Positions 3,268-24,238 are shown, counted from the first letter of the stretch. The stretch: 50,615 nt of DNA from a virus (IMGVR_UViG_2595698869_000001:171214-221828); one strand, 5' to 3'. Notes: generated by a model from the letters alone, not told the origin. Numbers and translations: made by a program.

Positions 3268-3270
3268 GCG

Positions 3271-3299
3271 TTGACAACACTCTCGCGCCAACATAGAAC
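3271..3299 (+). promoter_or_regulatory. sigma70-type promoter (copy 1 of identical 28-mer)
   Basis: TTGACA-N17-TAGAAC, then GACGACAAC at 3307 and GAGGAGG SD. Confidence 0.85.
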
Positions 3300-3327
3300 C
3301 ACCCTCGACGACAACGAGGAGGCTTCG

Positions 3328-3711
3328 ATGAAGCTCGCGACCCAAGACCGCACCGACCCGCGCCTGAACGCGCGCTATCGCCTCGCCAAGGCGGTGTTCT
3401 ACTATGGCGGCCCGCACGAGTACCCGATCCACCTGAACGACTGGTGGAACGAGGTGACGCCGGCCGACGTCGAGGACCGCATCTCCGAACTCTGCCGCGA
3501 ACTCTCCAAGCTGTCGGGTCAGACCCTGGCGCCGGCGACCTTCTACGAGCGGATGAAGCTGGGCTTCGTCGACCTCCCGGAAGTGAAGGACGAGGACTTC
3601 GCCACCCTGTCGGAGACGACCCGCAACAACCTGCTCGCCATGCAGGACCGCTTCTCGGTCCACGGGAGCGGCTTCATGCTCTACTGGAACATCGTCAAAG
3701 AGGAGGCCTGA
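3328..3711 (+). CDS. hypothetical protein (127 aa)
   Basis: ATG after GAGGAGG; the track start at 3271 is the -35 box, not a start codon. Confidence 0.8.
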   Translation: MKLATQDRTDPRLNARYRLAKAVFYYGGPHEYPIHLNDWWNEVTPADVEDRISELCRELSKLSGQTLAPATFYERMKLGFVDLPEVKDEDFATLSETTRNNLLAMQDRFSVHGSGFMLYWNIVKEEA

Positions 3712-3714
3712 GCC

Positions 3715-4074
3715 TTGGATCGCAACGACCCCGCCCAGCCCATGTGCAAGATCGCCGTCCTGGCCGGCCCCCTGTGGGAGGTCGATACCGACAACTGCGA
3801 GACCCTGCTGGTCCCGATCAAGGACGTCCCGCACCCCTGCGCCGAGAACTTCCAGGACGAGATCGACATGGCCCTCAACATGAGCGGCGAGGCCATGGAC
3901 TGGCGCCGCGTCGAGGGCTACGCCGCCGTCCTGCGCGATCCGCGCGGCGCGGACATGTCGCCCGTCGAGGGGCCGTTCGCGACCGCCGAGGAGGCTTTCG
4001 CCTACGTCAAGGACCAGTGGAGCGACCGCATCCCCGGCTCGATGGGGCTGGCGCCCTACGAGGCCCCGCAATGA
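3715..4074 (+). CDS. hypothetical protein (119 aa)
   Basis: TTG start after GAGGAGG. Confidence 0.7.
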   Translation: MDRNDPAQPMCKIAVLAGPLWEVDTDNCETLLVPIKDVPHPCAENFQDEIDMALNMSGEAMDWRRVEGYAAVLRDPRGADMSPVEGPFATAEEAFAYVKDQWSDRIPGSMGLAPYEAPQ

Positions 4075-4340
4075 TCAAGGTGACGCGCCGCATGACCTGG
4101 GCTGACGCCGGCCGCTGCTCCAAGACCGACTGGACCGCGTGGCTCATCCCCGCCGGCCCGCTGATCGCGGCGCTGCCGTTCGCCGCCCTGACCGGCGCGT
4201 GCCTGTCGATCAAGGACCCGACCCACACCAATCTGGCCATCGCCTTGCTGCCCGGCGCGGCGATGCTCTTCAACGGCTGGATGGCGACGTTCGCCTTCGA
4301 CCAGTTCCTGCGCGGGCGGGCCGGCGAGGAGGTCCGCTGA
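4071..4340 (+). CDS. hypothetical 2-TM membrane protein (89 aa)
   Basis: ATGA coupling; two hydrophobic stretches. Confidence 0.7.
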   Translation: MIKVTRRMTWADAGRCSKTDWTAWLIPAGPLIAALPFAALTGACLSIKDPTHTNLAIALLPGAAMLFNGWMATFAFDQFLRGRAGEEVR

Positions 4341-4341
4341 C

Positions 4342-4770
4342 ATGAAGCTCTTCATCATCATCCTGGCGGCGATCCTGTGGCTGGGCGACACCGCCCGCGC
4401 CCAGTCCCTGCCGTTCCGCCTGACCCAGCCGCTGAACTACGGCAGTGATCTCCACTACACCGAGACGCGCGACGCGTCCGCCTCGCGCGAGCCGCTCAAG
4501 CGGGTGATCGTCGACCTGTCGCGCTCGTCCACGGTGGTCATCGAGCGGGCCTGGACCTATGCCGAACTCGCCGGCGCCCAGACGACCTGCGGCGAGATCG
4601 TCCTCAACGGCCGCCGTCAGAGGTTCGTCCTCCAGGAAGGCCCCAAGACCGCCGTGATCGGCCCGGCGGTGCCCGCCTACTTCTGGTCGCTCGACGTGCC
4701 GGACTACCAGTTCCGCAACGCCGGATGCCTGCGCGACCGCGCCGCCCTGATCATCCCGCCGAGGTTCTGA
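4342..4770 (+). CDS. hypothetical secreted protein (142 aa)
   Basis: Sec-like signal MKLFIIILAAILWLGDTARA. Confidence 0.75.
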   Translation: MKLFIIILAAILWLGDTARAQSLPFRLTQPLNYGSDLHYTETRDASASREPLKRVIVDLSRSSTVVIERAWTYAELAGAQTTCGEIVLNGRRQRFVLQEGPKTAVIGPAVPAYFWSLDVPDYQFRNAGCLRDRAALIIPPRF

Positions 4771-4786
4771 TCCTGGCGTTCTTGTG

Positions 4787-4816
4787 TTGACAAGGCCAGC
4801 GCCGCTGGCCTAGAAC
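4787..4816 (+). promoter_or_regulatory. sigma70-type promoter
   Basis: TTGACA-N18-TAGAAC; GACGACAAC at 4823; AGGAGG SD. Confidence 0.8.
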
Positions 4817-4841
4817 GTCGTGGACGACAACAGGAGGGACC

Positions 4842-5198
4842 ATGCCGCTCTACGACTTTCCGACCGGACCGACCACGATGGCGGACATCGAGGCGTTCGT
4901 CGCCGGCGCCCAGGCGGTGGTGACCGCCCAACTGGCCAAGGCCTTTCCCGGCGTGTCCGCGCCGGTCCTGGAGATCGCGCCGGTTCACCCGAGCAGCCAG
5001 TTCGCCAAGATCGTCGCGGTCGACGCCAGCCAGCGCTCGGCCTGGGCGTTCGTCCGACTGGAGAACGGCCTGATCTACAAGCCCTCGTCGTGGAAGGTGC
5101 CGGCCAAGCATGCGCGTGGCACGATCCACACCGCCGCGCACGGCGCCGAGTACGTCGACTGGACCGGCCCGCGCTACGTCAAGGACCTGCGTCGATGA
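4842..5198 (+). CDS. conserved phage hypothetical protein (118 aa)
   Basis: IYKPSSWKVPAKHARG motif recalled from many phage hypothetical proteins; good SD. Confidence 0.8.
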   Translation: MPLYDFPTGPTTMADIEAFVAGAQAVVTAQLAKAFPGVSAPVLEIAPVHPSSQFAKIVAVDASQRSAWAFVRLENGLIYKPSSWKVPAKHARGTIHTAAHGAEYVDWTGPRYVKDLRR

Positions 5199-5461
5199 GG
5201 AACTTCTCCGTTCTCCTGTCGCTGCATGACGAGCGCCGCCTCTACGTGGTCGAGGCGTCGGACCCCGGCAAGGCGGTGGCCTTCGCCAAGCGCGTGGCGG
5301 CGGCGCACGACACCGTCGGCTCCAACTGGGAGATGGAAGTCGTCTTCCACGGCGCTTCCTACCTCGCCATGAAGGGCGCTTCCGTCAAGGTCATCGATCT
5401 GCGCTCCAGCGCGCAGGAACAGGAACCGGTGCCGCACGCTCAGCGTGGGAGTGGTTGCTGA
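5195..5461 (+). CDS. hypothetical protein (88 aa)
   Basis: ATGA coupling. Confidence 0.7.
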   Translation: MRNFSVLLSLHDERRLYVVEASDPGKAVAFAKRVAAAHDTVGSNWEMEVVFHGASYLAMKGASVKVIDLRSSAQEQEPVPHAQRGSGC

Positions 5462-5874
5462 TGCGCGTCGAGGACGGAAAGGCCATCGTCGATGACGTCT
5501 GGGCGGTGGTCAAGGGCCACCTGCCCGGCGCCATCCATTTCGTGCGCCTCAATTGGGTCGGTCGCCTGCTGCACGGTGGCGACATGCTCCACTACTGGGG
5601 CATCCAACAGCCGACCCAGATTCCTGGCGTCGCCTATGTCTGGGACGACGAGACCAACGATGGCCCGCTCGGCGGCTGGATGGGTCCGGAGACCAAGATC
5701 ATCGCCCGCTTCGCCGACCAGCGCCAGGGCCTGGACGTCCTGCGCGCGGCGATGGAGACCAAGGCGCGCTTCGACGCCCTGGTCCGCCAGGGCGAGGACT
5801 TGCTGCTCGCCCTCAAGGCCCAGCGTGACCAAGCCCTGTTCGCGGCCTTGACCCAGGGGGTTCCCGAGGCATGA
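5461..5874 (+). CDS. hypothetical protein (137 aa)
   Basis: TGATG coupling. Confidence 0.75.
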   Translation: MRVEDGKAIVDDVWAVVKGHLPGAIHFVRLNWVGRLLHGGDMLHYWGIQQPTQIPGVAYVWDDETNDGPLGGWMGPETKIIARFADQRQGLDVLRAAMETKARFDALVRQGEDLLLALKAQRDQALFAALTQGVPEA

Positions 5875-6281
5875 GCTTTGCGATCCGCTACTTTCCCGGC
5901 CCGCGCCTGGGCTATGGCAAGGTCGTCTCCCGTCACGGGCGTCACGTCCTCTTCCAGGCCTATGCTGGGAACGATCCCCAGCCGGGGACCCTGCCCGAGG
6001 TCGTTCACTGGGACGACATCATCGAAGGTCGCTTTGCCTCGGTCGCCAAGGTCATCCTGGCGATCGACGAATCCATGCGCTGGTTCAAGGCCCTGGAAGC
6101 CGAGCGCGGCGCCGAGCAGTCCGCCGAGGTCCTCATGACGCATCTGCGGCGCTATGAGCGCGACGACTGCGAGGTTTGCCACGGCGCGCGCGGCGGGGTG
6201 CGGGGCAACGAGAACATCGTCGATGGCAAGGTGGTCTGTGACTACTGCACCATGGACATCCTCGACGCGAGGAAAAGCTGA
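5871..6281 (+). CDS. hypothetical protein with C-terminal CxxC..CxxC zinc ribbon
   Basis: CEVC...CDYC; ATGA coupling. Confidence 0.75.
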   Translation: MSFAIRYFPGPRLGYGKVVSRHGRHVLFQAYAGNDPQPGTLPEVVHWDDIIEGRFASVAKVILAIDESMRWFKALEAERGAEQSAEVLMTHLRRYERDDCEVCHGARGGVRGNENIVDGKVVCDYCTMDILDARKS

Positions 6282-6502
6282 TGGGGGCCTACGCCTACTG
6301 CCAGAACCCCGACTGCGGCGCGCCGCACGATCGCCCGTCGGCCCGTGAGGTCGTGGAGCGCGAGCGGCGCTGCTACGCCTGCGGGAAGGACGTCCCGGTC
6401 TATGACGATCTGGCCGACATCCTCGAACGGATGGAGGGCCGGATCGACGATCTGGAAGCCGAGGTCAAGGCCCTGAAGGGAGAGACCGATGGGCCTGCGT
6501 AA
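6281..6502 (+). CDS. small zinc-ribbon/coiled-coil protein (73 aa)
   Basis: CQNPDC...CYAC followed by a heptad tail. Confidence 0.75.
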   Translation: MGAYAYCQNPDCGAPHDRPSAREVVERERRCYACGKDVPVYDDLADILERMEGRIDDLEAEVKALKGETDGPA

Positions 6503-6845
6503 AATCCCGCCGCGCTCCTCCTGGTGGATGGGCTATGCTCTCAGCACGGCGTTCAAGAAGCCCTCGCACGAGGAGCGGATCGCCCGGCTGCGCGCCGTTC
6601 AAGGGCATAGGCTCTCGGGCGCCCAGATGCGCGACCCACTCATGAAGAAGCTGGTGCGCGAGGGCCTCGTGCGCCTGCATCGCTCGTCGAACGCCGAGCA
6701 TTACAAGAGCGCCCGAGGCGGCTTCATGAAGTCCACCGAGGCCTATCTGACGCCGGCCGGCGAAGCCTATCTGGCGGACCCGACGCCGCATCACGTCCCG
6801 AAGTCCGAGCGGACCGAGAAGACCAAGGGGGTGCGGGGCAAATGA
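6489..6845 (+). CDS. hypothetical basic protein, possible winged helix (118 aa)
   Basis: LMKKLVREGLVRL...AYLTPAG. Confidence 0.7.
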   Translation: MGLRKIPPRSSWWMGYALSTAFKKPSHEERIARLRAVQGHRLSGAQMRDPLMKKLVREGLVRLHRSSNAEHYKSARGGFMKSTEAYLTPAGEAYLADPTPHHVPKSERTEKTKGVRGK

Positions 6846-7240
6846 CCGCGACCCGCCAAGAGATCAAGGACGTCCTCGACCGCGTGGCGAACCTGCGCGA
6901 GCCTGACCGTGAGGTCGAGCTTGCCGTCTGGAACATCGTCAGCACCCAGGGGCGCTGGGCGTGGCACACCCATCATGAGACGATCCACCAGATCGCCAGC
7001 GATGGGCGATATGGCTACGGCATCTGCTCGCTGGAGCGGCTGACCTCGTCGATCAACGACGTGTTGTCGTTCGCCCACTATGCCGATCTCCATTCCCTCG
7101 AACTCCTGGAGAAGGGTCTGGCGCGGGTCAAGTTGCTTCCGCGTCATCTCTACGACCAGGACTACGACGTCCAATTCTTCTTTTGCCGCGACATGCTCAT
7201 GGTGATCCTGGAGCATTGTCTTGAGAAAGCCAACGCATGA
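6842..7240 (+). CDS. hypothetical protein (132 aa)
   Basis: ATGA coupling. Confidence 0.75.
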   Translation: MTATRQEIKDVLDRVANLREPDREVELAVWNIVSTQGRWAWHTHHETIHQIASDGRYGYGICSLERLTSSINDVLSFAHYADLHSLELLEKGLARVKLLPRHLYDQDYDVQFFFCRDMLMVILEHCLEKANA

Positions 7241-7626
7241 GCTTCGTCTATCTTGCGATCCCCTACACCTCCCAACTGGAGGACGAGGCCGAAGCCAAGG
7301 CCGAGCGCGACGCCCGAATGGTCGAATTCTGGAAGGCCGCCGCCTTTCTGATCGACCGGGGCGATCACGTCGTCTCGCCCATGACCCTGGAGCCGGCCCT
7401 GGTCGCCGTGCCCGACATGCCCTACCGCTGGGAGCACTGGAAGGAATACTCGATCAAGATGATCGGGATTTCGTCGAAGCTGGTGGTCCTGCAACTGCCC
7501 GGCTGGTCGACCAGCCGGGGCGTCATCGGCGAGATGCACGCGGCGGGCGAAGCCGGCATCGAGATCGAGTTCCTGACCCTTCAGACGGTCGCGACGTGGT
7601 TGAGCACCAGGGAGATTGAAGCGTGA
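7237..7626 (+). CDS. DUF1937-like / nucleoside 2-deoxyribosyltransferase-fold protein
   Basis: VYLAIPYT, HVVSP, LVVLQLPGWSTSRGVIGE motifs. Confidence 0.65.
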   Translation: MSFVYLAIPYTSQLEDEAEAKAERDARMVEFWKAAAFLIDRGDHVVSPMTLEPALVAVPDMPYRWEHWKEYSIKMIGISSKLVVLQLPGWSTSRGVIGEMHAAGEAGIEIEFLTLQTVATWLSTREIEA

Positions 7627-8078
7627 TCCAGTTCCTCAAGGACATCACGGGCGTCACCGCGCGCGCCGAAGCCCTGGAGCGCGCAAAAGCCAAGGCCCTG
7701 CATGCCAATCAGTTGGCCCAGGCGCGCAAGGTCGGGGAATTTCAGGTGGTGCAGGAAGACCGCAAACTCTTCCACTATCAACTGTTTCTCACCCCCTCCA
7801 CGCTCGACGGGTCTTGGTTTTACCTGGGGAGCTACGGCCACATCTGTAGCCGGGTCAACGCCCACTCCTTCTCGTCTCTGGAAGAGGCCAAGGTGGCGGG
7901 TGCGGCGGCGGGCGCTCAATGCCGCGAGCGCATCGCCGGCGAGATGGAGCGCCAGCAGCAGTTCCGCAATATCTACGCCCCGCCGGAGTTCCTGGCCAAA
8001 TCCGTCAACGCCTTCAAGTCGAGTGAGGACCTGCTGATCGAGGTCGCGCGGACGGTGTCCCAGAGGTACCAGCGATGA
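7623..8078 (+). CDS. hypothetical protein (151 aa)
   Basis: GTGA coupling. Confidence 0.75.
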   Translation: MIQFLKDITGVTARAEALERAKAKALHANQLAQARKVGEFQVVQEDRKLFHYQLFLTPSTLDGSWFYLGSYGHICSRVNAHSFSSLEEAKVAGAAAGAQCRERIAGEMERQQQFRNIYAPPEFLAKSVNAFKSSEDLLIEVARTVSQRYQR

Positions 8079-8341
8079 GCGCGGTCGCTCTGAAGTTCGA
8101 CACGCTCGCCGACGCCGAGATGGCGGTCGCCCAGGCGCTCTATGAGCACTGGGTGCGGAGCGAGCGCGCCCGTCATGTCACCTGGAACATCCCCGGCTGG
8201 GTCGAGCCGCCCGCCTGGGCGGACATGAACTGGACCGAGCGCACGCACTGGCTGGTCGAGGCCGGCCTCGTCGTCGACTGCCTGCTCGAATTCGTCAAGA
8301 ACAACCCCGGCGCCTATGGAGAGAGCCATGAACCGTCGTGA
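8075..8341 (+). CDS. hypothetical protein (88 aa)
   Basis: ATGA coupling. Confidence 0.7.
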   Translation: MSAVALKFDTLADAEMAVAQALYEHWVRSERARHVTWNIPGWVEPPAWADMNWTERTHWLVEAGLVVDCLLEFVKNNPGAYGESHEPS

Positions 8342-8948
8342 ACTGATCCTGGGCGCCGGCGCGGTCGTCGCGGCCTCGGCCCTGCCGAGCGTGGTCGAGG
8401 CCGCGCGCATCGAGCCCATTCGACGCTTGCTCCTGGAAAGCGGCTTCGTCCAGCACGAGACCTTCGCCACCTCTTGGATGGCGATCTGGACGGAAGACTC
8501 CCACGCCTCGCGGCATGCCGAGGTCGTCCGGGCCTGGATCGACGAGACGGTCCAGAGCGGCTATCTCAAGTGTGGCGGCGAGACCTACATCCTCGATAAG
8601 CACGTGCGGCTTCCGCAGGTGGACTTCACGATCTCCCCGGCCGACAAGGTCTGGTCGCACTGGTCGGGCTGGGTCGAGGAGGCAGGGCTGAAGGTCGTCG
8701 TGCGCGTGCTCGCGTCCGATCCCCAGGTCGATGCGACCTTCGATCCGGTCTATCTGATGAAGACCCGCTGGCAGACCGACGGGACCCAGGCTCCGGAGGA
8801 GACTCGCTACCTCGTCCGCCGGCCGCTCCTGCGTTACCACGAGGAACGCGAGCTTCGCTACGCCCTCGGGGACACCGCCGGCTACTCGCCGAACTCGTTG
8901 GTCGAGTTCGACAATGGCTGGCTTCTCGACATGGCGAAAAGCGCATGA
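8328..8948 (+). CDS. putative Tat-exported protein (206 aa)
   Basis: MNRRELILGAGAVVAASALPSVVEAA: twin-Arg, h-region and AxA; SD GGAGAG upstream. Confidence 0.65.
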   Translation: MNRRELILGAGAVVAASALPSVVEAARIEPIRRLLLESGFVQHETFATSWMAIWTEDSHASRHAEVVRAWIDETVQSGYLKCGGETYILDKHVRLPQVDFTISPADKVWSHWSGWVEEAGLKVVVRVLASDPQVDATFDPVYLMKTRWQTDGTQAPEETRYLVRRPLLRYHEERELRYALGDTAGYSPNSLVEFDNGWLLDMAKSA

Positions 8949-9448
8949 TCCGCTCGACCGGAGAAGCGCCCGAGACCCGCGCCGGCCGTCTTGCCGAGGG
9001 CTATGCCGCGCAGAAAGCCGCGATCAAGAAGCTGCTGGACAGTCCGCCCGAGGTGGTGAACGCCCATTGGCAGCGCCTGAGCGCGATGATCTGGGCGCAC
9101 TGTGATCTGCGAGTCCTCGGGGAGTGGCAGGAACGGCCGGTCCGGGGCTGGATCGCCGAGCACATCAACGCCCCGTTCGACATCTGCCTTTCCCAGGACG
9201 GGAACGGCCGCACGATCAGCGATACTGATCTGGCGATCTCGATGATCTCCAATCTGCTCCCGACGGCCTCGATCGAAATTCGAAAGTGGCCTCCCGGCGG
9301 AATCCAAATGCCCTGGGAGTTGAAGCTGGACACGCGCTTCAGCGCCGGCCGCCACCAGGGCCTTCTCTGGGGTTTCGGCCACAACATCGCCCAGGCCGCT
9401 TGGCGCGCCTATTTCAGCTACGTCAACAAGGAGCCCACCGATGTCTGA
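8945..9448 (+). CDS. hypothetical protein (167 aa)
   Basis: ATGA coupling. Confidence 0.75.
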   Translation: MIRSTGEAPETRAGRLAEGYAAQKAAIKKLLDSPPEVVNAHWQRLSAMIWAHCDLRVLGEWQERPVRGWIAEHINAPFDICLSQDGNGRTISDTDLAISMISNLLPTASIEIRKWPPGGIQMPWELKLDTRFSAGRHQGLLWGFGHNIAQAAWRAYFSYVNKEPTDV

Positions 9449-9659
9449 CGTCTTCGATGAGGTCGAGCGCCGCCTGAACCGCCGGCGTCCCGGCTTCTGG
9501 ATTCACAAGGTCGCCATCGCGATCATCGTGGTGATCGCCCTGTTGGTCGTCGCCGGCGCCGCCGTCCAGGTCTTCAACCCGACCCTGGCCGTCCAGTGGC
9601 AGGCCAAGCAGGACGCGGCCTATGACCGCGCCTACGAAGAAGCCCGGCGGGCCGAGTGA
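9441..9659 (+). CDS. single-TM membrane protein (72 aa)
   Basis: AAGGAG SD; hydrophobic VAIAIIVVIALLVVAGAAV. Confidence 0.75.
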   Translation: MSDVFDEVERRLNRRRPGFWIHKVAIAIIVVIALLVVAGAAVQVFNPTLAVQWQAKQDAAYDRAYEEARRAE

Positions 9660-10150
9660 TGGCGATCTTCGCGCCCGAATACACCTGGGAGGCGATCGGC
9701 ACCGATGTCGCCGTTGGCCTGACCGAGGCGGTGATCCGGGGCGAGGCCGCACCGGTCTGCGTCGGCTCCTCGCTGCACGCCATGGAATTCCACGTCATCT
9801 GGCGCGGCGATCTCTACCGGGCCTTCACCGGCATGGGGAGCGATCCCGACTGGACCTGCGCCGAGAAGGGCGTGCGGGTCCCCCATCCGCTGGACGGCAA
9901 GAAGATCGACGAGATCGAGAAGGACCGGCATCGCGACGAGGAACGCTACCGCCGCGAGATCGAGACCATGCCCGGCCGGCACCTCTACATCTGCCGCAAG
10001 ACCGATGACCTCCAGGACATCCTCGCCCGCATCCCGATGGACCTGCGGATGCGCCACGAGATGTCGAACATGATCACCCTCCTGGCCCGGATGATGCTGG
10101 TCCAGAACTCCACCCGCACGCTTTCCCGCTCCAAACTCGACCGGTTCTGA
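9656..10150 (+). CDS. hypothetical protein (164 aa)
   Basis: GTGA coupling. Confidence 0.75.
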   Translation: MMAIFAPEYTWEAIGTDVAVGLTEAVIRGEAAPVCVGSSLHAMEFHVIWRGDLYRAFTGMGSDPDWTCAEKGVRVPHPLDGKKIDEIEKDRHRDEERYRREIETMPGRHLYICRKTDDLQDILARIPMDLRMRHEMSNMITLLARMMLVQNSTRTLSRSKLDRF

Positions 10151-10151
10151 C

Positions 10152-12476: not shown

Positions 12477-12496
12477 ATTTTGTTGGCGTTAGAACG

Positions 12497-12525
12497 TTGA
12501 CAGCCTCGGCGTGATGTCATAAAAG
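12497..12525 (+). promoter_or_regulatory. sigma70-type promoter
   Basis: TTGACA-N17-TAAAAG; GACGACAAC at 12533; GAGGAGG SD. Confidence 0.8.
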
Positions 12526-12553
12526 CCTCCTCGACGACAACGAGGAGGGCCAC

Positions 12554-12973
12554 ATGGCTTACGCAATTCCGGACCTGAGCACGTTCACGTTCCACGATCC
12601 CAAGGTCGAACGGTTCGCCAAGGCGATGATCTCGACGATCGAGACCGCCCAGACCATCCTCACGGCCTTCGCCAACGATCTCGCCGACAATCCTCTTCAG
12701 GCGTTCGAGCATAGCTACGGCGCCAAGATGGCCGCCGCCCACAGGGACGTCGCCAAGGGGCTGCTCAACGAAGTCCTCGACGCGCTGCTGCACGGTCAGG
12801 ACAAGACCTGGGCCTACATCGGCCAGGACCTGCGCGAGCGGCTGATGTATCGCGTGATCTACGCGGCCTCGAACCCGCCGCGCTCGACCAACGTCGAAGG
12901 CAACGACATGGCCCGCTTCGTCCTGCGCGCCGAGGCCGACATGCTCGACCGCATGACCAAGAGCCGCTTCTGA
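12554..12973 (+). CDS. hypothetical protein (139 aa)
   Basis: Strong SD; first gene of module. Confidence 0.8.
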   Translation: MAYAIPDLSTFTFHDPKVERFAKAMISTIETAQTILTAFANDLADNPLQAFEHSYGAKMAAAHRDVAKGLLNEVLDALLHGQDKTWAYIGQDLRERLMYRVIYAASNPPRSTNVEGNDMARFVLRAEADMLDRMTKSRF

Positions 12974-13885: not shown

Positions 13886-13899
13886 TTGGCGTTCAAGTG

Positions 13900-13928
13900 T
13901 TGCCAAAGCTGATCTGATCAGCTAGAAC
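13900..13928 (+). promoter_or_regulatory. sigma70-type promoter
   Basis: TTGCCA-N17-TAGAAC (GCTAGAAC); GACGACAAC at 13936. Confidence 0.75.
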
Positions 13929-13955
13929 CCTCGCCGACGACAACGAGGAGGCCCC

Positions 13956-14150
13956 ATGCCGCACCTGAGCAAGACGCCGTTCGACTTCGACTTCACCAGT
14001 GACGCTTTGGCGGCAACGCTGGAATTCGAGCGCAACACGACCGAGTTCTACCGCTACGAGACAGTCTTCACATCCGGTCGTGCGGCAACTCACGTTCTCG
14101 TCATGGAAGAAGACGGGAATTTCGTCGGCTTCGTCTCGGGTGAAGCCTGA
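13956..14150 (+). CDS. hypothetical protein (64 aa)
   Basis: GAGGAGG SD. Confidence 0.7.
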   Translation: MPHLSKTPFDFDFTSDALAATLEFERNTTEFYRYETVFTSGRAATHVLVMEEDGNFVGFVSGEA

Positions 14151-14776: not shown

Positions 14777-14777
14777 C

Positions 14778-15095: not shown

Positions 15096-15124
15096 TCGCC
15101 GCCAGCCCGGCTGGCTTCAGTGTG

Positions 15125-15153
15125 TTGACGGCGCGTCGCTCGCCCGCTAAGAA
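15125..15153 (+). promoter_or_regulatory. sigma70-type promoter
   Basis: TTGACG-N17-TAAGAA (GCTAAGAA); no GACGACAAC. Confidence 0.7.
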
Positions 15154-15211
15154 GGGCTGACGGTCACGCTCTGGCTGCATGAATTTTCAATCCGAAAGAG
15201 GCCTTAAGTAC

Positions 15212-17242: not shown

Positions 17243-17261
17243 CGGAAGGACCTGAAAGACC

Positions 17262-17684
17262 ATGAGCACCGATCTCTTCGAAATCGCCGCGCGCGAGAAG
17301 TTCCGCTTCGACAGCCCCAAGGGCGACCTGGGCGTGGAAGAACTGTTCGACCTGCCGCTGACCAGCACCGTCGCCGGCAAGGCCAACCTGAACGACATCG
17401 CCGTCGACCTGTTCAAGCAGATCAAGGACCTCGACAACATCTCGTTCGTCACGCCCAAGAAGGTCGACCCCTCGATCGGCCAGCGCCTGGACATCGTCAA
17501 GCGGGTGATCGAGATCAAGCAGGCCGAGAACGCGGCAAAGCTGAAGACCGCCCAGGACAAGGAGACCCTGCGCATCCTGGACGAGGCGATCGCCGCCAAG
17601 AAGTCCGAGAAGATCGCCGGCACCTCGCTGGAAGACCTGGAAGCCCAGCGCGCGGCCCTGCTCTCGGGCGGCGCCTCGGCCTAG
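17262..17684 (+). CDS. conserved hypothetical protein (140 aa)
   Basis: GGAAGGA SD; LFEIAAREKFRFDSPKGDLGVEELFDLPL; coiled-coil tail. Confidence 0.8.
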   Translation: MSTDLFEIAAREKFRFDSPKGDLGVEELFDLPLTSTVAGKANLNDIAVDLFKQIKDLDNISFVTPKKVDPSIGQRLDIVKRVIEIKQAENAAKLKTAQDKETLRILDEAIAAKKSEKIAGTSLEDLEAQRAALLSGGASA

Positions 17685-17709
17685 CCTCCGGGCGGGCTGA
17701 CATAGGCGC

Positions 17710-17738
17710 TTGACAACACTCTCGCGCCAACATAGAAG
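17710..17738 (+). promoter_or_regulatory. sigma70-type promoter (copy 2 of identical 28-mer)
   Basis: TTGACA-N17-TAGAAG; GACGACAAC at 17746. Confidence 0.85.
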
Positions 17739-17769
17739 GGCCTCCGACGACAACGCCGGAGGCCCTTTT
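17738..17769 (+). terminator. intrinsic terminator overlapping promoter +1 and SD
   Basis: GGGCCTCCG / CGGAGGCCC 9-bp perfect stem followed by TTTT. Confidence 0.6.
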
Positions 17770-17770
17770 C

Positions 17771-18079
17771 ATGTCCGAGATTAGCTGCACCACGCCGGTT
17801 CCGAATAATCCGCGCTACGTGATTGTTACCGTCGATGGTCGGAAATATCGTTTCTCAGCGGCTGAGCGACGCCGACGCGGCGATGTCGTGATCAACTATG
17901 TGCTCGGAAGTCGAAAGGGCAAATGGGGCCAGTCGACCGATTGGGTCTCCCTGCCCCAAGGCCCCAAGCGCCGGACGGTGGTCTCCTCGGCCGCCGAGTT
18001 CCTCGCTTCGTCCCCAGACATTCCGGCTGAAGAACAGTCGGTCTGGGCCGGCGTCGCCTTTGCGAACCTCGCCCAATGA
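17771..18079 (+). CDS. hypothetical protein (102 aa)
   Basis: GGAGG SD. Confidence 0.7.
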   Translation: MSEISCTTPVPNNPRYVIVTVDGRKYRFSAAERRRRGDVVINYVLGSRKGKWGQSTDWVSLPQGPKRRTVVSSAAEFLASSPDIPAEEQSVWAGVAFANLAQ

Positions 18080-18528
18080 CCTATCCCATCCAGATCGATC
18101 CCGCGATCCTCGCCCTGGGCGCCGCCTGGAAGGCGGCTGACATCCTGGAGCGCGACCTGCGCGCCAAATGGACCTACGACAGCCACGACCGCGCCACCTA
18201 CGAGGCCTGGAAGCTCGCCGACGACGCGCGCAACGCCGCCTTCAAGGCGATGACCAGCGCCCTGCCCGATCCGGGCAAGCCGGTGTTCATCAGTCCCACC
18301 GACTGGCTGGCCCAGCAGGACAACTGGCGCACCTACTATGCGCCGGTGAAGGCCTGGAACTCGGCGCCGCACTGGAACAACTGGTACCCGTGCCTGGGCC
18401 ACTATGAGTTCAACGCCCGCACCGGCGAGCACTTCTACCGTGGGGCCGAGATGTACGACCGCTGCATCGAGGAGGCCGTCCGGCGCAATGCCGAGTACGC
18501 GGCATACTACGCCAAGAAGGCCGCCTGA
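18076..18528 (+). CDS. hypothetical Trp/Tyr-rich protein (150 aa)
   Basis: ATGA coupling. Confidence 0.8.
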   Translation: MTYPIQIDPAILALGAAWKAADILERDLRAKWTYDSHDRATYEAWKLADDARNAAFKAMTSALPDPGKPVFISPTDWLAQQDNWRTYYAPVKAWNSAPHWNNWYPCLGHYEFNARTGEHFYRGAEMYDRCIEEAVRRNAEYAAYYAKKAA

Positions 18529-18529
18529 C

Positions 18530-18778
18530 ATGACCAAGTCCGTCCAGGTCCAGCGCGGCAAGACCACCTACCACGTCACCTTCGACGAGGCCGGGCAGGT
18601 CTCGTCGATCATCGGCGTCGCGGTGGTCGGCAAGGTCCCGCGCTACAAGGGCGGCACGCGCCGCGTCACCTATTCCGGCGCCAGCAACGGCTGGCACGCC
18701 AGCGCCGGCCGCCCCATCCCCATGCAGCTTCGCCCGATCGCGGACGAGGCGTTCCAGATCAAGGAGGCCCAGTCTTGA
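18530..18778 (+). CDS. hypothetical protein (82 aa)
   Basis: ATG 1 nt after upstream stop. Confidence 0.7.
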   Translation: MTKSVQVQRGKTTYHVTFDEAGQVSSIIGVAVVGKVPRYKGGTRRVTYSGASNGWHASAGRPIPMQLRPIADEAFQIKEAQS

Positions 18779-19584
18779 GCGACTTCCAGCTTTCCGCCCA
18801 GCACCAGCGGATCGTCAACAACACGATCGACGCGCTGGACTATCTCTTTCGGCGCAATGGCGAGCCGTCCTCGGGCGGCGAGATGCCGTTCAACCGGCTC
18901 GATCTCGGGAGCATCGCCGACAACATCTCGGCCGTCCTGGCGGTGCTCCCCAGCCACGCCGACATCCTGACGAAGTACCTCTTCATCGCCCAGGGGTTGC
19001 TTCGCGAGATCGCCAACTACCACGCGGGCGACACCCTGGCGCTCGACCTGCGCCGGATGGCGCAAGCCCTGCGCCCCTTCTACAAGACCCGCGCCGCCGC
19101 TGGTCTGTCGCCGGCGGCCCAGCAGACCCTCGACTTCATGGTCGAAGGCCTGCGCTTCCTGGCCGAGAACGACTGCGAGCCTCCGTCGGGTGGCGAGCAG
19201 ATGTACAACCGCATCTCGCTTCTGAGCCGCACCGGCTCGGACGCCAAGCGCCTGCGCCAGGAGGCCCCCAACCTCGACGTGGTGATCACCCAGGTCGAGG
19301 CCCTGTTCATCGACCTCTGGCATTATCGCGCCATCGCCCTGAAGGACGTCCAGGACGCCTTGGAGGCCCTGGAGCCCTACTATGTTCCGCCCGCCTGGAC
19401 GGTCGCGCCGGCCCCTGCGCCGGCTAAGCCCGCCGCCCGCATCGTCTCGAAGGCCGAGGCCCTGGAACTCCTCGACCACATCGCCACGACGGCCTCCGTC
19501 CTGCGGATGCAGATGGGGCCGGCCAACGCCGACATCACACTGGAGCGGGTCAAGACGCTCGAAGCCTTCGTCAATCAGCAATAG
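18775..19584 (+). CDS. hypothetical protein with internal ~100-aa duplication (269 aa)
   Basis: EPSSGGEMPFNRLDL vs EPPSGGEQMYNRISL; TTG start after AAGGAGG. Confidence 0.75.
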   Translation: MSDFQLSAQHQRIVNNTIDALDYLFRRNGEPSSGGEMPFNRLDLGSIADNISAVLAVLPSHADILTKYLFIAQGLLREIANYHAGDTLALDLRRMAQALRPFYKTRAAAGLSPAAQQTLDFMVEGLRFLAENDCEPPSGGEQMYNRISLLSRTGSDAKRLRQEAPNLDVVITQVEALFIDLWHYRAIALKDVQDALEALEPYYVPPAWTVAPAPAPAKPAARIVSKAEALELLDHIATTASVLRMQMGPANADITLERVKTLEAFVNQQ

Positions 19585-19593
19585 GGGGCCAGC

Positions 19594-20043
19594 ATGACCA
19601 CTCCGCTCTGCCTGAATCCGGACGGCGCCGACTTCCAGGCCCAGGCCGTCCTCGCCCTGGTCCGCTTCATCATCGGCGACGACTTCGAGCCGTCCTGGAA
19701 CGCGGCGAAGCAGGTCTTCGAGGGCGAGCCCCAAGTCGCCCGCTTCGATAGCCCGCGCTGCCACGGCTACGTGATCTGGCTGGTCGATCACCGCGCGGCG
19801 GTGTTCGGCGGCGAACCCCGGCAGATCAACATCACCCTCTACCAACACGGGGTCAGCGACGAGATCGTCATCAACGCGTGGCTGGGCGAAACCAACCGCT
19901 GGATGGTCCCGACCTATCACGACATGCCCGGCCTCGATCTGATGTTCAGGCACGTGACCTTCCGCTGCCTGGACGTCAAGTCGGCCGCCTACTACGTCGC
20001 CGACCTGATGAAGGAGTTCTGGGCCGAGGGCTCGCCGCGATGA
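19594..20043 (+). CDS. hypothetical protein (149 aa)
   Basis: ORF with phage-like codon usage. Confidence 0.75.
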   Translation: MTTPLCLNPDGADFQAQAVLALVRFIIGDDFEPSWNAAKQVFEGEPQVARFDSPRCHGYVIWLVDHRAAVFGGEPRQINITLYQHGVSDEIVINAWLGETNRWMVPTYHDMPGLDLMFRHVTFRCLDVKSAAYYVADLMKEFWAEGSPR

Positions 20044-20342
20044 GCGACCACGATGCCTGCCTGACCAACTGGGTCCTCTGCGACGCGCCCGGCGGCGGGC
20101 TGGTGGTGATCGGCGAAATCATGGCCGACAAGCGCGGACGCTGGCCGGACGGGCGGCTCATCCATACCTCGCTCCTCCAGGCCAAGGCCGAGGCGGTGGC
20201 GCCGGGCGCGGTGGTCGCCACGCTCAACTCCCGCTACATCCTCGGGCGCAAGGCCGAGGAGATCACCGTCCGTCACTTCGTCGGGGCGATGCTCGCCCGC
20301 GTCGCGATCAGACCGCTTGACAACACTCTCGCGCCAACATAG
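20040..20342 (+). CDS. hypothetical protein (100 aa)
   Basis: ATGA coupling; its stop TAG lies in the -10 box of the next promoter. Confidence 0.7.
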   Translation: MSDHDACLTNWVLCDAPGGGLVVIGEIMADKRGRWPDGRLIHTSLLQAKAEAVAPGAVVATLNSRYILGRKAEEITVRHFVGAMLARVAIRPLDNTLAPT

Positions 20343-20345
20343 AAG
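20317..20345 (+). promoter_or_regulatory. sigma70-type promoter (copy 3 of identical 28-mer)
   Basis: TTGACA-N17-TAGAAG; GACGACAAC at 20353. Confidence 0.85.
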
Positions 20346-20409
20346 GGTCCTCGACGACAACGGCTGTCCGAAATTTGTAGACGGATTTCGGACATAGAGG
20401 AGCAACCCG

Positions 20410-20793
20410 ATGGCCCAGCGCCTGAAGATCAAGGAAGTCGTGGTGGCGCAGCAGGACGCTGTCTACCACTGGCGTGGTGAGGAAGGCGACGAGTATCAGG
20501 TCATGAGCCTCGTCCACGTCCAGACCCTGGACGGCCGCTGGTTCCTGATGCCGGCCATGCGCCCCTACACCCGCGCCGAGGAGGCCGCGTTCGACGAGGC
20601 CTGCGGCGAAATCCTGTTCGGGATGAAGACCCGCTACTCGGACCCGCAGGCCTTCGCCGCCATCGTCCGCGCCGCCGGCTCGATCGATCCTGATCTGTGG
20701 GTCGAGTATCAGCCCGACACCCGCACCCTGGAAGAGAAGTTCCACGACGACTGGGTCGAGGAACAGTTCGACCGCCAACGCTTCGCCGCCTGA
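20410..20793 (+). CDS. hypothetical protein (127 aa)
   Basis: GAGGAG SD. Confidence 0.8.
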   Translation: MAQRLKIKEVVVAQQDAVYHWRGEEGDEYQVMSLVHVQTLDGRWFLMPAMRPYTRAEEAAFDEACGEILFGMKTRYSDPQAFAAIVRAAGSIDPDLWVEYQPDTRTLEEKFHDDWVEEQFDRQRFAA

Positions 20794-20803
20794 GGAGGAC
20801 CCG

Positions 20804-21271
20804 ATGAGCTACCAACAAGCCCTGATGGACGCCCAGGCCGCGTTCCACGCCCACGAGATGGACGTCAACGACCGCGCCTGGGAGCGCTGGCTCAAGAAGC
20901 TGGAGGACGTCCTCGGCTTCGACGTCGACGCCGACAACTCAAAGGAGGCCAAGGCCTTCTACTGCGACATGGGCTACTCGCTCGACGAGACCTTCGAGAT
21001 GTTCGACAAGGGCATGAGTGTCGAGCAGGCCCGCGTCGCCATCCTGCGCGCGTGCTACGAGGCCGCCGCCCGCGCCGCCGGCGTGGGCCTGGACGCCCTG
21101 GTCGAGGCCGAGGCGCGCGCCGTCGCCACCCGCGACGCCCTGCCTGAAAAGCGCAAGGTGGACCGCGAGCAGTACGCCCGCTACGCCGAACTGCTGGGCA
21201 AGATGATCGCCCGCATCCGCGAGGTCGGCGACGACTCGGGCGCGGCGCTTGAGAAGGCGTTCGGCCAATGA
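20804..21271 (+). CDS. hypothetical protein (155 aa)
   Basis: GAGGAGG SD. Confidence 0.8.
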   Translation: MSYQQALMDAQAAFHAHEMDVNDRAWERWLKKLEDVLGFDVDADNSKEAKAFYCDMGYSLDETFEMFDKGMSVEQARVAILRACYEAAARAAGVGLDALVEAEARAVATRDALPEKRKVDREQYARYAELLGKMIARIREVGDDSGAALEKAFGQ

Positions 21272-21495
21272 GCGGCGGTCTCCACATGCGCCGAATCGAT
21301 CACCCGCCGGGCCATGAGCTTCACGGCGTCACCGAGCGCGAGTTCGAGTGGTTCGGCAAGTCCTACCACGTGCGCAAGGAGTCCGGCGCCGTGCGGGTCT
21401 GGGTCCGCAAGAAGCGTGGAAGCCACTACCGCTTCCTGTCGCGCGACAGCGTGATCGCCGCCTGCGTCCGCCAAGCCTCGGGGCTGTTCCAATGA
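21268..21495 (+). CDS. hypothetical basic protein (75 aa)
   Basis: ATGA coupling. Confidence 0.7.
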   Translation: MSGGLHMRRIDHPPGHELHGVTEREFEWFGKSYHVRKESGAVRVWVRKKRGSHYRFLSRDSVIAACVRQASGLFQ

Positions 21496-21884
21496 GCCGC
21501 CCGTCGATCGCGGTGGTCGCCGCCACGCCGGCCCTGGCGCCCATGCACTGGGAGATCGTCGACCTCAAGGTCTGCGACGACAGCCGGGTCAAGCTGAACG
21601 GTGATGGGACGATGTTCGCCCGCGCCGCCGACCCGACGGCGCTGGGCTGGATTCCGTTCAAGATCGTCCTGGGCTGCTTTGAGACCTTCGCCGACGCCTA
21701 CGAGGCCCGCAACAAGGCCCGGTCGCTCTGGTTCAAAGCGGCCGAAACGGTCGACGCCGCCGCCGAGGCGGTGGTCGCCGCCGAACAGGCCCTGGCGCGC
21801 GCCCGCGCCGTCCAGGCCCAAGCCGAAAGCGCCCAGCGCGCGTCCTGTCGCGAGCCGTTCCTCGGCACGCCCACCGACTACTAG
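21492..21884 (+). CDS. hypothetical protein (130 aa)
   Basis: ATGA coupling. Confidence 0.7.
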   Translation: MSRPSIAVVAATPALAPMHWEIVDLKVCDDSRVKLNGDGTMFARAADPTALGWIPFKIVLGCFETFADAYEARNKARSLWFKAAETVDAAAEAVVAAEQALARARAVQAQAESAQRASCREPFLGTPTDY

Positions 21885-21892
21885 GAGGTCCC

Positions 21893-22270
21893 ATGCGCAA
21901 GCCCAAGAAGACCGAGCAGGCCTATATCGTGTCGGGGACGTGGCCGTTTCCGACCGACATGCTGCGCTACGACGACGCCCGCCCGGCGACGGAGGGCGAC
22001 GCCAACCTGATCAAGGCCCTGGAGAGCGAGGACCCCTCGCTTTCGGACCTGCGCAACCGCGTCCAGATCAAGCTGATCCGCCCGGCCAACGGCCTGCCCG
22101 CCGTCAAGCGCTGGGAGTCCTTCCTCTGGAAGGTCGTGGGCGGCGACGAGGAGGTCGCGGCGGACGTGGCGTGGCGCGACGCCCTGGATAACCGCGACGC
22201 CCTGCGCAAGTCCGGCCTCGCCAAGCTGACTCCCGCCGAGCGCGCCGCGCTCAATCTCGACATCCGCTAG
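21893..22270 (+). CDS. conserved phage hypothetical protein (125 aa)
   Basis: AGGAGG SD; FPTDMLRYD...RWESFLW. Confidence 0.8.
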   Translation: MRKPKKTEQAYIVSGTWPFPTDMLRYDDARPATEGDANLIKALESEDPSLSDLRNRVQIKLIRPANGLPAVKRWESFLWKVVGGDEEVAADVAWRDALDNRDALRKSGLAKLTPAERAALNLDIR

Positions 22271-22284
22271 GACAAGGAGGTCCC

Positions 22285-22770
22285 ATGCCCTGCAATTCCG
22301 AATATCAACAGCCGAACGCGCGCGAAGCCGAGTCCAAGAAGGTCGCCGGCCTGCTGGTCTATGTCCACGATAAGCTGGGCCGCACCGATCTTTCGAGCAG
22401 CATCCGTACCATCGCCAACATCTATTACGGCGCGCCCGGCCGTTGCGATGAACTGACCGAACGGCTCTGCTCGATGCTGCGCGACCTGACGCTCGATGAG
22501 CAGAACGAGGTCATCTACGACGGCCGCAATCCCAAGGCGCGCGAACTGGCCGACTGGTGGGAGCGCCACCAGGAGCATGACCGCAAGCGCGCCGAGGCCG
22601 AAGCCCAGGCCGCCAAGCCCACGCTGAAGCAAGCCGTCTCGGCGGTGATCGCCCAACTCGACTATTCGGCCGACGGCAAGGTGTTCCCGACCGAGGGGAG
22701 CGATCAGCTTCCCCCGAAGCTGGCCAAGGCCCTGAACGACATGACCGACGCCTGGAACGACGGGCGTTGA
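22285..22770 (+). CDS. hypothetical protein (161 aa)
   Basis: AAGGAGG SD. Confidence 0.8.
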   Translation: MPCNSEYQQPNAREAESKKVAGLLVYVHDKLGRTDLSSSIRTIANIYYGAPGRCDELTERLCSMLRDLTLDEQNEVIYDGRNPKARELADWWERHQEHDRKRAEAEAQAAKPTLKQAVSAVIAQLDYSADGKVFPTEGSDQLPPKLAKALNDMTDAWNDGR

Positions 22771-22787
22771 TCGTTGGCTCCGATGTG

Positions 22788-22817
22788 TTGACAAGAAGCG
22801 GCGGCCTCCTGTAGAAG
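22788..22817 (+). promoter_or_regulatory. sigma70-type promoter
   Basis: TTGACA-N18-TAGAAG; GACGACAAC at 22825. Confidence 0.8.
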
Positions 22818-22846
22818 CATCCTCGACGACAACAGGAGGCCCCGCC

Positions 22847-23341
22847 TTGACCGACACCATCGCGCCTGGAACCGAGTTCGAAGACGCCGTCACCCTCGGC
22901 GTCGAGATCATCCAGTCCAAGCCGCCGCACCTGACCGCCCGTGAGGCGGTCGAGAAGTTCCAACACCAGCCGGACGAGTTCCGCCTGCTGGTGACCCGCT
23001 TCAACAAGGCGACCGCCGCCTTGCCGGCGGTGGTCCACGGCCACCAGTTGCAGTCGACCTGCGCCAAGTGGGTGCTCGACTCGGCCCAGCGGTTGATCGA
23101 CCTGCCGTTCGAGACGATCGAGCAGCGCGTGGCGTTCTACGCCAAGCAGATGACGCTCCCGGCCTATGGCTACCTGATGGATCGCTACAAGGACCGGCTC
23201 GACGCCAAGATCGCCATCATCCGGGCCTGCCTGGAAGACCGCAACCACGTCGGCGCCAGCTACAACCTGGGCATCCTGGAAGAGGACTTCCAGGAGATGG
23301 TCGACCGTCACGACGATCTGGTCTCGGACGGCTACCCTTGA
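22847..23341 (+). CDS. hypothetical protein (164 aa)
   Basis: TTG start after AGGAGG. Confidence 0.75.
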   Translation: MTDTIAPGTEFEDAVTLGVEIIQSKPPHLTAREAVEKFQHQPDEFRLLVTRFNKATAALPAVVHGHQLQSTCAKWVLDSAQRLIDLPFETIEQRVAFYAKQMTLPAYGYLMDRYKDRLDAKIAIIRACLEDRNHVGASYNLGILEEDFQEMVDRHDDLVSDGYP

Positions 23342-23348
23342 TGGGCGC

Positions 23349-23377
23349 TTGCAGCCGTCACAACTCCAGCCTAGCTT
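23349..23377 (+). promoter_or_regulatory. possible sigma70-type promoter for two-gene cassette
   Basis: TTGCAG-N17-TAGCTT. Confidence 0.45.
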
Positions 23378-23413
23378 CCTCGCGCCGCGCTGTTGCGGTC
23401 ATGAGGATTCGAA

Positions 23414-23674
23414 ATGGACAGGCTGAAAGTCAAGCTCTTCGCCAAGGGGATTCATACCTCGGCCGAGGCCCTGGTCGATGCGATCGCGGCGCTTCCGGAG
23501 GGGCCGGAGAAGGATGCGGTGGTCGCGGCCGAGAAGCAGTTGCACGCGCGGCTGAACTGGGGCGCGGCGAAGGCCGGCGAGTTCTTCGGGGACGAGTCGA
23601 TCTCGCTCCTGGCGCGGCGCCGCACTGGCGGCGAGGACAAGCCGGACGCCCCCGAGGTTCCGCCCGGCGGCTGA
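23414..23674 (+). CDS. small protein with C-terminal GG-x-x-KP tail (86 aa)
   Basis: GAGGA SD; ends RRRTGGEDKPDAPEVPPGG. Confidence 0.75.
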   Translation: MDRLKVKLFAKGIHTSAEALVDAIAALPEGPEKDAVVAAEKQLHARLNWGAAKAGEFFGDESISLLARRRTGGEDKPDAPEVPPGG

Positions 23675-23684
23675 CGGGTGCGTC

Positions 23685-24209
23685 ATGGGCCTGACGGGCT
23701 GCACCTTTGCAGTCCTGACGGCCGGCTCGGTCGCCTATGCGATCGACCGTGGCGGCAAGGCGCTGAAGCTCAGCGCCTTCCTGCTGCTGGCGTCCTGGGC
23801 GTTCTCGGTCACCCTGGGCCAGACCCTCAACGCGGGCATGAAGCCCTATGTCTACGCCTGGGTCGACGCCCTGTTCGCCGGCGCGATGGGGATATTGATC
23901 TCCGCCCGGCTCCAGCGCTGGCGGGTCGCCCTCTTCACCCTGGCGATCGCCCAGATGGGCCTCCACCTGATCATGATCGGGGTCTGGGATTTCTCGCTGC
24001 ACGCGCGGCGCCTCCACATCCTAGCCCTCAACCTGACCTATGGCCTGGAACTCTTCGTCCTGACGATCGGGGCGGCGACCTATCGCGCCGAGGCCGAGGA
24101 CGACATGCCGGCGGTGATCGAGGTCCAGCACCGCTTGATCGGGACCGACGACGGCCGCGTTCTCGATTGGCTTGAATGTGTTGACAAAGCCAGAGAGCCC
24201 ATCCTATAA
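23685..24209 (+). CDS. polytopic (4-5 TM) membrane protein (174 aa)
   Basis: Repeated hydrophobic segments; AYAIDRGG...WVD...RWRVALFTLAIAQMGLH. Confidence 0.8.
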   Translation: MGLTGCTFAVLTAGSVAYAIDRGGKALKLSAFLLLASWAFSVTLGQTLNAGMKPYVYAWVDALFAGAMGILISARLQRWRVALFTLAIAQMGLHLIMIGVWDFSLHARRLHILALNLTYGLELFVLTIGAATYRAEAEDDMPAVIEVQHRLIGTDDGRVLDWLECVDKAREPIL

Positions 24210-24210
24210 G
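24181..24210 (+). promoter_or_regulatory. sigma70-type promoter
   Basis: TTGACA-N18-TATAAG; GACGACAAC at 24218; GAGGAGG SD. Confidence 0.85.
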
Positions 24211-24238
24211 CTCCCTCGACGACAACGAGGAGGCCCCC

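Follow-up and report, generated by a model that had tools for sequence, protein, structure and literature searches.

The DNA analysed here is a 50,615-nucleotide (nt) window of a viral genome (IMGVR_UViG_2595698869_000001:171214-221828), and its positions 3,271 to 24,238 carry eight exact copies of a nine-base sequence, GACGACAAC (the 9-mer), each at the presumed start site of an early promoter. Sequence comparison showed that these sites are copies of one early promoter and leader cassette, with about twenty members genome-wide. The best explanation of the whole, to which we give a probability of about 0.5, is that the cassette combines a promoter with an insulator against read-through transcription, and that the 9-mer is a tag read by a small RNA (sRNA). 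The window is the right-hand 50.6 kb (genome 171214-221828) of a 221,828-bp record with direct terminal repeats, the genome of a phiCbK-like siphovirus of Caulobacter with a G+C content of ~66%. Its identity is 97.6% to Caulobacter phage CcrSwift and ~96% to phiCbK, the latter across most of the cassette-bearing region. In the searchable literature we found descriptions neither of the GACGACAAC motif nor of phiCbK promoters or RNA-level regulation.

All eight window copies of the 9-mer lie on the + strand (Table 1), against an expectation of 0.54 from dinucleotide shuffles (maximum 2). They stand exactly where the original prediction, made from the sequence of the window, had placed them, and its spacing of 36-37 nt from the first base of the -35 box was borne out, with 36 nt in six copies and 37 nt in two. 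The order of elements is the same in every copy: the -35 box, 17-18 nt, the -10 box, 6-7 nt, the 9-mer, the Shine-Dalgarno (SD) sequence and the start codon. The gap between 9-mer and SD is 0-4 nt, except for 35 nt in the copy at 20353 (cassettes are named here by the window position of their 9-mer), and the SD, GAGGAGG or AGGAGG, is followed after 5-8 nt by ATG or TTG. The cassettes are 58-96 bp long, and a 28-bp promoter is identical in three of them.

Table 1. The eight promoter and leader cassettes of the window (window positions), with the predicted probability that the SD is unpaired in read-through context and in the local transcript.
Cassette	Span	Strand	Promoter	Around the start site	9-mer	SD	Start codon	SD unpaired, read-through	SD unpaired, local
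1	3271..3330	+	-35 TTGACA at 3271; -10 TAGAAC; spacer is the conserved 17-mer ACACTCTCGCGCCAACA	CCTC 3303-3306	3307-3315	GAGGAGG	ATG 3328	0.002	0.59
2	4787..4844	+		CGTCGTG in place of the CCTC arm; no SD-hiding hairpin	4823		ATG 4842	0.51	0.30
3	12497..12556	+		8-bp stem CCTCCTCG/CGAGGAGG at 12526-12548, loop ACGACAA	12533		ATG 12554	0.000	0.53
4	13900..13958	+	-35 TTGCCA	CCTCGCC, then the 9-mer	13936		ATG 13956	0.11	0.67
5	17710..17773	+		terminator around the start site	17746		ATG 17771	<=0.002	
6	20317..20412	+		CCTC pairs with the SD only at long range	20353	GAGGAG	ATG 20410	0.23	0.51
7	22788..22849	+		TCCTC, then the 9-mer	22825	AGGAGG	TTG 22847	0.000	0.19
8	24181..24241	+		CCTCG-ACGACAA-CGAGG from 24214	24218		ATG 24239	0.002	0.67

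The whole genome holds 18 exact copies of this intergenic repeat, in which an early promoter, often with a stem-loop close to the -10 box, leads to an SD and a start codon; they account for 18 of its 19 exact 9-mers. Eleven are on the + strand (genome 114908-195431) and seven on the - strand (genome 134055-157001). Four more cassettes have one or two mismatches in the 9-mer, with ACGACA intact in all. The relatives phiCbK, CcrBL10 and CcrRogue carry 16, 20 and 20 cassettes, respectively, and over ~75 copies the 9-mer is invariant at +1 to +9 while flanks, spacers and arms differ widely. A 20-base composite cassette pattern had no match in a representative set of 185,579 bacterial genomes, and a search of viral contigs for TTGACA-N28-33-GACGACAAC returned mainly chance matches beyond the known relatives. 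The window also holds ten other copies of the 7-mer ACGACAA, nine on the + strand (10279, 10609, 14217, 16248, 28360, 39675, 43365, 44110 and 46848) and one on the - strand (7064), and none of these ten has a promoter at the correct distance. They look like strings of GAC-GAC-AAx codons (Asp-Asp-Asn/Lys), so that their excess over shuffles would stem from codon usage, and a shuffle-based expectation underestimates chance for the 7-mer.

The promoter part of the cassette resembled a host housekeeping promoter (sigma-70/sigma-73 type). The -35 box reads TTGACA in seven of the eight window copies, and the -10 hexamers in the window are TAGAAC, TAGAAG, TAAAAG and TATAAG (TAGAAS-type), with four of the six -10 positions variable across cassettes. 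In the cassettes the two boxes are separated by a fixed 17-18 nt, and the 9-mer follows the -10 box at a variable 6-8 nt. A scan with an E. coli-type promoter consensus found no site, since position 6 of the cassette -10 box is G or C and not T. The housekeeping consensus of Caulobacter is TTGACGS-N10-14-GCTANAWC, and the cassette -10 box TAGAAC fits its GCTANAWC part.

Several features point to the 9-mer as the probable start of transcription. At the presumed start, -1 is a pyrimidine and +1 a purine, and both sequence conservation and complementarity to the candidate sRNA described below begin precisely at the G of the 9-mer. The first transcribed base is therefore likely to be the G or the A of the 9-mer, which would give a local leader of ~20 nt, A/C-rich and unstructured, with the 9-mer as its 5' end. 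Where the stem is longer, its 5' arm shares bases with the -10 box and must be missing from any RNA that the local promoter makes.

Some further elements were observed around the promoter. In five cassettes TGGC(G/T)T lies ~9 nt upstream of the -35 box (4774-4779, 12484-12489, 13887-13892, 22775-22779 and 24168-24172). The three cassettes that lack it carry its reverse complement, CGCCAA, within an identical 17-nt spacer (3277-3293, 17716-17732 and 20323-20339), and the two forms could be one factor-binding site in two positions. A sigma-54 reading of the TGGC element was rejected on spacing. In the cassettes of CcrColossus and the Brevundimonas phage Kabachok, the spacer ends in a conserved (G/A)TTYCTTTAC block that enters the -10 box, an extended -10 region that is absent from the phiCbK group.

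The mechanism that we propose links these parts as follows. The local promoter would start RNA at the 9-mer and leave out the pyrimidine tract, mostly CCTC, that precedes it, whereas RNA arriving from upstream would keep the tract, which would pair with the SD and hold the 9-mer as the loop. At 17746, the read-through hairpin would terminate transcription around the next start site. In the window, four or five of the other copies would use a shorter stem to mask the SD in read-through RNA and leave the local RNA open, so that the insulator part may be a terminator, an attenuator or an SD mask. The candidate sRNA would base-pair with every early leader, at its 5' tag and its SD, and tune the early leaders or shut them off together. 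A stricter form, which we hold only tentatively, gives the cassette three jobs at each of about twenty early operons, as host-type promoter, insulator hairpin and 9-nt 5' tag read by a single sRNA. The tag would then be single-stranded in both RNAs, as the 5' end of the local RNA and as the hairpin loop of the read-through RNA.

Each first-gene start was folded in two forms, one with 70 nt of upstream sequence to represent read-through RNA and one beginning at the 9-mer to represent the local transcript. The median probability that the SD is unpaired was 0.009-0.012 for cassettes in read-through context and 0.47-0.49 in the local transcript; the corresponding value for 359 other gene starts was 0.30 against 0.009 for the cassettes (Mann-Whitney p = 0.008). 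Genome-wide, 9 of 16 cassettes fell below 0.05 in read-through context, compared with 13 of 95 genes that follow intergenic gaps (14%; Fisher p = 5e-4) and 7 of 94 operon-internal genes (7%; p = 2e-5). Predicted SD hiding is thus 4-8 times commoner in cassettes than in control genes. The native upstream arm contributed -5.7 kcal/mol, against -3.6 kcal/mol for a shuffled arm, and when arms were swapped among all cassettes stability was significantly lost (z = -1.8 to -3.5 per genome, hairpin-based measure).

Within the window, the earlier claim that most copies fold an SD-hiding hairpin held narrowly. The SD was unpaired with a probability of at most 0.002 in five copies (3307, 12533, 17746, 22825 and 24218); 13936 was partly masked, 20353 was masked by long-range pairing only, and 4823 was unmasked. 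The palindromes quoted with that claim are present, CCTCG-ACGACAA-CGAGG at 3303 and 24214 and the 8-bp one at 12533, the latter one base to the left of the 12527-12549 originally given; the minimal region of this last copy folds at -14.5 kcal/mol. A stem-loop running from the -10 box or +1 to the SD was found in ~10 of the 18 genome copies. Pairing extends beyond CCTC/GAGG, to 8-12 bp, at 12526-12548, at genome 114908, at 175098 in CcrRogue and at 182375 in CcrBL10, the long stems reaching into the -10 box and the SD-to-ATG spacer. In the copy at genome 170662, the anti-SD is located in the promoter spacer.

Two structures of other kinds were also seen. Between 9-mer and SD, cassette 6 has a leader hairpin with arms of 9 nt each, GTCCGAAAT (20366-20374) and ATTTCGGAC (20385-20393), and a loop of 10 nt. 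The hairpin is conserved: phiCbK, CcrBL10 and CcrRogue all have it and differ chiefly in the loop. At genome 146328 (- strand) and its orthologs in CcrBL10 and CcrRogue, the SD GAGGAG is predicted to pair with a CCUC just downstream and so to be hidden in read-through and local transcripts alike (unpaired 0.003-0.02).

Terminator-type copies, with a stem of 8-13 bp and a U-tract, number two per genome, here 17746 and genome 134055 (- strand). At 17746, GGGCCTCC (17738-17745), the loop GACGACAACGCC and GGAGGCCC (17758-17765) are followed by TTTT, a single C and then the ATG; the fold has -25.8 kcal/mol, and its phiCbK ortholog is annotated as a rho-independent terminator. Among close relatives, a terminator-type copy shows a C-to-U change in the 5' arm that turns a G-C pair into G-U and keeps the pair. 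The terminator copy of Kabachok has the same loop and a stem that is fully different yet complementary. Partner-specific covariation of the arms was weak once the terminator-type copies were removed.

The arrangement of the genome makes read-through RNA expected, since the cassettes begin 3-25 nt past the preceding stop codon, a gap too short to hold a terminator of its own. In the window, the next promoter upstream of a cassette is another cassette of this class. RNA sequencing (RNA-seq) contigs from phiCbK infection (four runs of one study; region 3201-23200) span the cassettes at 3307, 4823 and 12533, which may be taken as a weak hint of read-through. The contigs break only at 17736 and at 20314-20343. 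Both places belong to the 28-bp promoter that is present in three copies, which makes the breaks an artefact of assembly and not start sites.

The 9-mer led to a candidate sRNA. The only 9-mer outside a cassette lies on the - strand at genome 53150-53158 and has been kept by each of the four close relatives. It falls within a putative sRNA unit of ~96 nt on the + strand (genome 53107-53202; phiCbK 52957-53052), outside the window and just after the tRNA array. This unit has a promoter of the cassette family (TTGACA, 17 nt, TAAAAC, 7 nt, G), and its predicted fold comprises a 5' hairpin, a single-stranded GUUGUCGUCA and a strong terminator. GUUGUCGUCA is the exact complement of the 9-mer, has a predicted unpaired probability of 0.8-0.99 and is adjoined by a CUUCU or CCUCU anti-SD. 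The unit is conserved in 23 phage records, where it is unannotated save for a terminator feature; Rfam gave no family match for it and only tRNAs near the locus. Similar units follow tRNA gene(s) in CcrColossus (69473-69583, a locus also placed by flanking similarity) and in Kabachok.

Seed and leader core have changed together in three phage lineages. This genome, phiCbK, CcrBL10, CcrRogue and BL57 have the seed GUUGUCGUC with the leader core GACGACAAC. CcrColossus has the seed UGAUCGUC, and its leader core is mostly GACGAUCA. In Kabachok the seed GUCGUC is joined directly to GGUCCUCC, and the leader core is GACGAC in 15 of 18 copies, followed by variable bases and GGAGGACC. Cognate seed-leader duplexes were more stable than non-cognate ones in both directions (-18.1 versus -11.6 and -11.6 versus -9.0 kcal/mol). 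When 375 gene starts were ranked as sRNA targets, cassette leaders together with two degenerate copies made up 18 of the top 20, a ranking that is partly circular. A role as sRNA target is the best explanation of the invariance of the 9-mer that the sequences suggest. The idea that ACGACAA is a 5'-end tag, raised earlier as one option, is, in this form, the best-supported part of the original prediction.

The following points weigh against the proposed mechanism. Some 7 of the 18 genome copies have no SD-hiding hairpin or a weak one, and such hairpins are rarer in CcrBL10 and CcrRogue (7-8 of 20) and in Kabachok (4 of 17). When the two terminator-type copies were left out, the arm swap gave z = -0.25 to -0.9 with 10-nt arms (p = 0.19-0.39) and z = -1.5 to -2.2 with 22-nt arms (p = 0.014-0.07, in favour of cognate pairs); a duplex-only swap of a 9-nt arm was not significant in three of four genomes (p = 0.03-0.48). 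Ortholog chimeras between two genera lost only 0.2-0.6 kcal/mol, a weak trend. Stems of 4-5 bp (-5 to -10 kcal/mol) may be too weak to block ribosomes, and the benefit of silencing read-through copies is not evident when the upstream promoters belong to the same class. On the side of the sRNA, a consensus structure computed from five homologues had some of the seed bases paired to the 5' region; the poor 5' domain in this fold is probably due to misalignment with CcrColossus. On balance, the original reading of the hairpin was supported in part.

Two of the points against concern the pyrimidine tract itself. CCTC always occupies -4 to -1, however far away the SD is, and it persists at 20353 though the SD lies 35 nt further on; CCTCCTC or CCTCCTT also precedes the sRNA start in CcrBL10, CcrRogue and BL57, with no SD downstream. 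Being fixed in place and present at the sRNA promoter, the tract may be a promoter or start-site element. The hairpin would then be mainly incidental: CCTC would make transcription begin with the first purine, so that all 5' ends are alike, the SD would be GAGG for its own reasons, and structure would have been selected only in the two terminator-type copies of each genome. The non-significant 10-nt swap also favours this account, which we nevertheless consider somewhat unlikely, as several copies pair over 8-12 bp, past CCTC/GAGG, the anti-SD at genome 170662 sits in the promoter spacer, the 22-nt arms favour cognate pairs and SD hiding exceeds its frequency in control genes. From these predictions we regard the terminator-type copies and a few of the long stems as real structures. 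The 4-5-bp stems may in part have arisen incidentally from a pyrimidine tract whose role is to set the start site.

A different role for the stem-loops, which we judge unlikely, would lie in transcription or at RNA ends, as attenuators, pause sites or 3'-end protection of the upstream operon. It draws on the two canonical terminators per genome, on the position of the cassettes directly after stop codons, and on the promoter-early stem-loops (PeSLs) of T4-type phages, for which such a role has been proposed and whose stem-loops over the -10 box terminate efficiently in reporters (PMC2839356). Against it, most other cassette stems have no U-tract, a simple terminator scan found no excess over shuffles (9 versus 10.0), and the 3' arm is always the SD and not an arbitrary sequence.

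The first genes of the cassettes are ORFans, and seven of the eight in the window have no Pfam family; the product of the gene after cassette 2 is a DUF7717 protein. Two cassettes also coincide with mosaic junctions. Similarity to phiCbK breaks off at 13945 (185174 in genome coordinates), immediately past the 9-mer, and again after the terminator cassette near 17770 (17769-18082), where the gene at 17771-18079 is absent from phiCbK, and four phages each have a different gene after the orthologous terminator cassette. It is improbable, but worth weighing, that the cassettes are alike mainly as recombination substrates that shuffle ORFans and are homogenised by gene conversion. The identical 28-bp promoter in three window copies would fit this, as would the two junctions and the exchanged genes. 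Only 2 of ~8 breakpoints relative to phiCbK fall at cassettes, however, and conversion would homogenise the flanks too, whereas spacers and arms differ while the 9-mer is exact; such recombination would also be compatible with regulatory readings.

The least probable of the alternatives has the 9-mer read as DNA or by a protein, as a promoter-escape sequence, a sigma-dependent pause or a phage-regulator operator, for which its invariance at +1 to +9, the agreement of GACAAC with TAGAAC at 4 of 6 positions and the strong early promoters of coliphage T5, which likewise share homology in the transcribed region, can be cited; but the -10 box of the same cassettes varies where the 9-mer does not, and this account does not predict an exposed complement in a promoter-terminator unit that co-changes in two other lineages. 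Pairing of the 9-mer with 16S rRNA (8 of 9 bases to a helix-34 stretch) was dropped as a downstream-box-type idea without support.

A major model bacterium has phiCbK as its standard phage; the host is non-pathogenic, and genetic tools and an infection RNA-seq series (GSE241057) are available. The promoter, insulator and tag reading, if true, would provide a compact, portable promoter, insulator and leader part for Caulobacter and would explain the independence of about twenty early operons that lie end to end. Together with the sRNA, this would be a rare lytic phage that controls a whole temporal class post-transcriptionally, one small RNA governing the entire early gene set of a 220-kb phage. 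The design, with co-varying seed and tag, would span phages from Caulobacter to Brevundimonas.

Among known systems, the PeSLs are the closest analogue of the cassette (Arbiol et al. 2010, PMC2839356; Comeau et al. 2014, PMC4122927). Both are repeated intergenic cassettes of ~60-100 bp with a strong early promoter for the host sigma factor, a stem-loop over the -10 box and an SD and start codon at the 3' end. The PeSLs are placed before ORFans and act as recombination points; the first genes here are ORFans, and two of the ~8 breakpoints lie at cassettes. The phage lineage and host are unrelated, however, and the genome here is GC-rich. In the present cassette the 3' arm of the stem is the SD and the loop is the invariant 9-mer at the start site, TGGC(G/T)T stands upstream and there is no AT-rich tract, only two copies per genome have a U-tract, and a matching sRNA-like unit is present. 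The cassette is therefore an analogue of the PeSLs and not a member of the group.

For SD masking, the closest analogues are the T4 genes e, soc, 49 and I-TevI. Each has an SD-sequestering hairpin, and an internal late promoter yields RNA without its 5' arm; the measured effect is ~100-fold in gene e (PMC3014915). Here, too, the structure contains the promoter, RNA started locally would be devoid of the 5' arm and the longer transcript is predicted to hide the SD. The geometry of the T4 cases put forward originally fits the cassettes, since the longer stems reach into the -10 box with their 5' arm. The temporal logic is missing: the upstream and local promoters of T4 are of different temporal classes, whereas both are early here. 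The stems here are moreover often of 4-5 bp, in a predicted design common to ~20 genes.

For the candidate sRNA, GcvB pairs a G/U-rich seed with C/A-rich elements upstream of the SD, and c4 is an antisense RNA of phages P1 and P7. The likeness consists in a short RNA with its own promoter and terminator and an exposed G/U-rich seed directed at a C/A-rich leader near many SDs. In contrast to these, the predicted targets here are early leaders of the phage itself, contacted at their very 5' end, the complementarity of the seed to an invariant 9-mer is perfect, and there is no sequence or Rfam relation. The copy at 17746 resembles an intrinsic terminator in its GC-rich 8-13-bp stem and TTTT, but its loop holds the start site of the next promoter and its 3' arm the SD of the next gene. 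None of PeSL, T4 gene e and GcvB or c4 is homologous to the cassette, which combines these known kinds of element in a new way.

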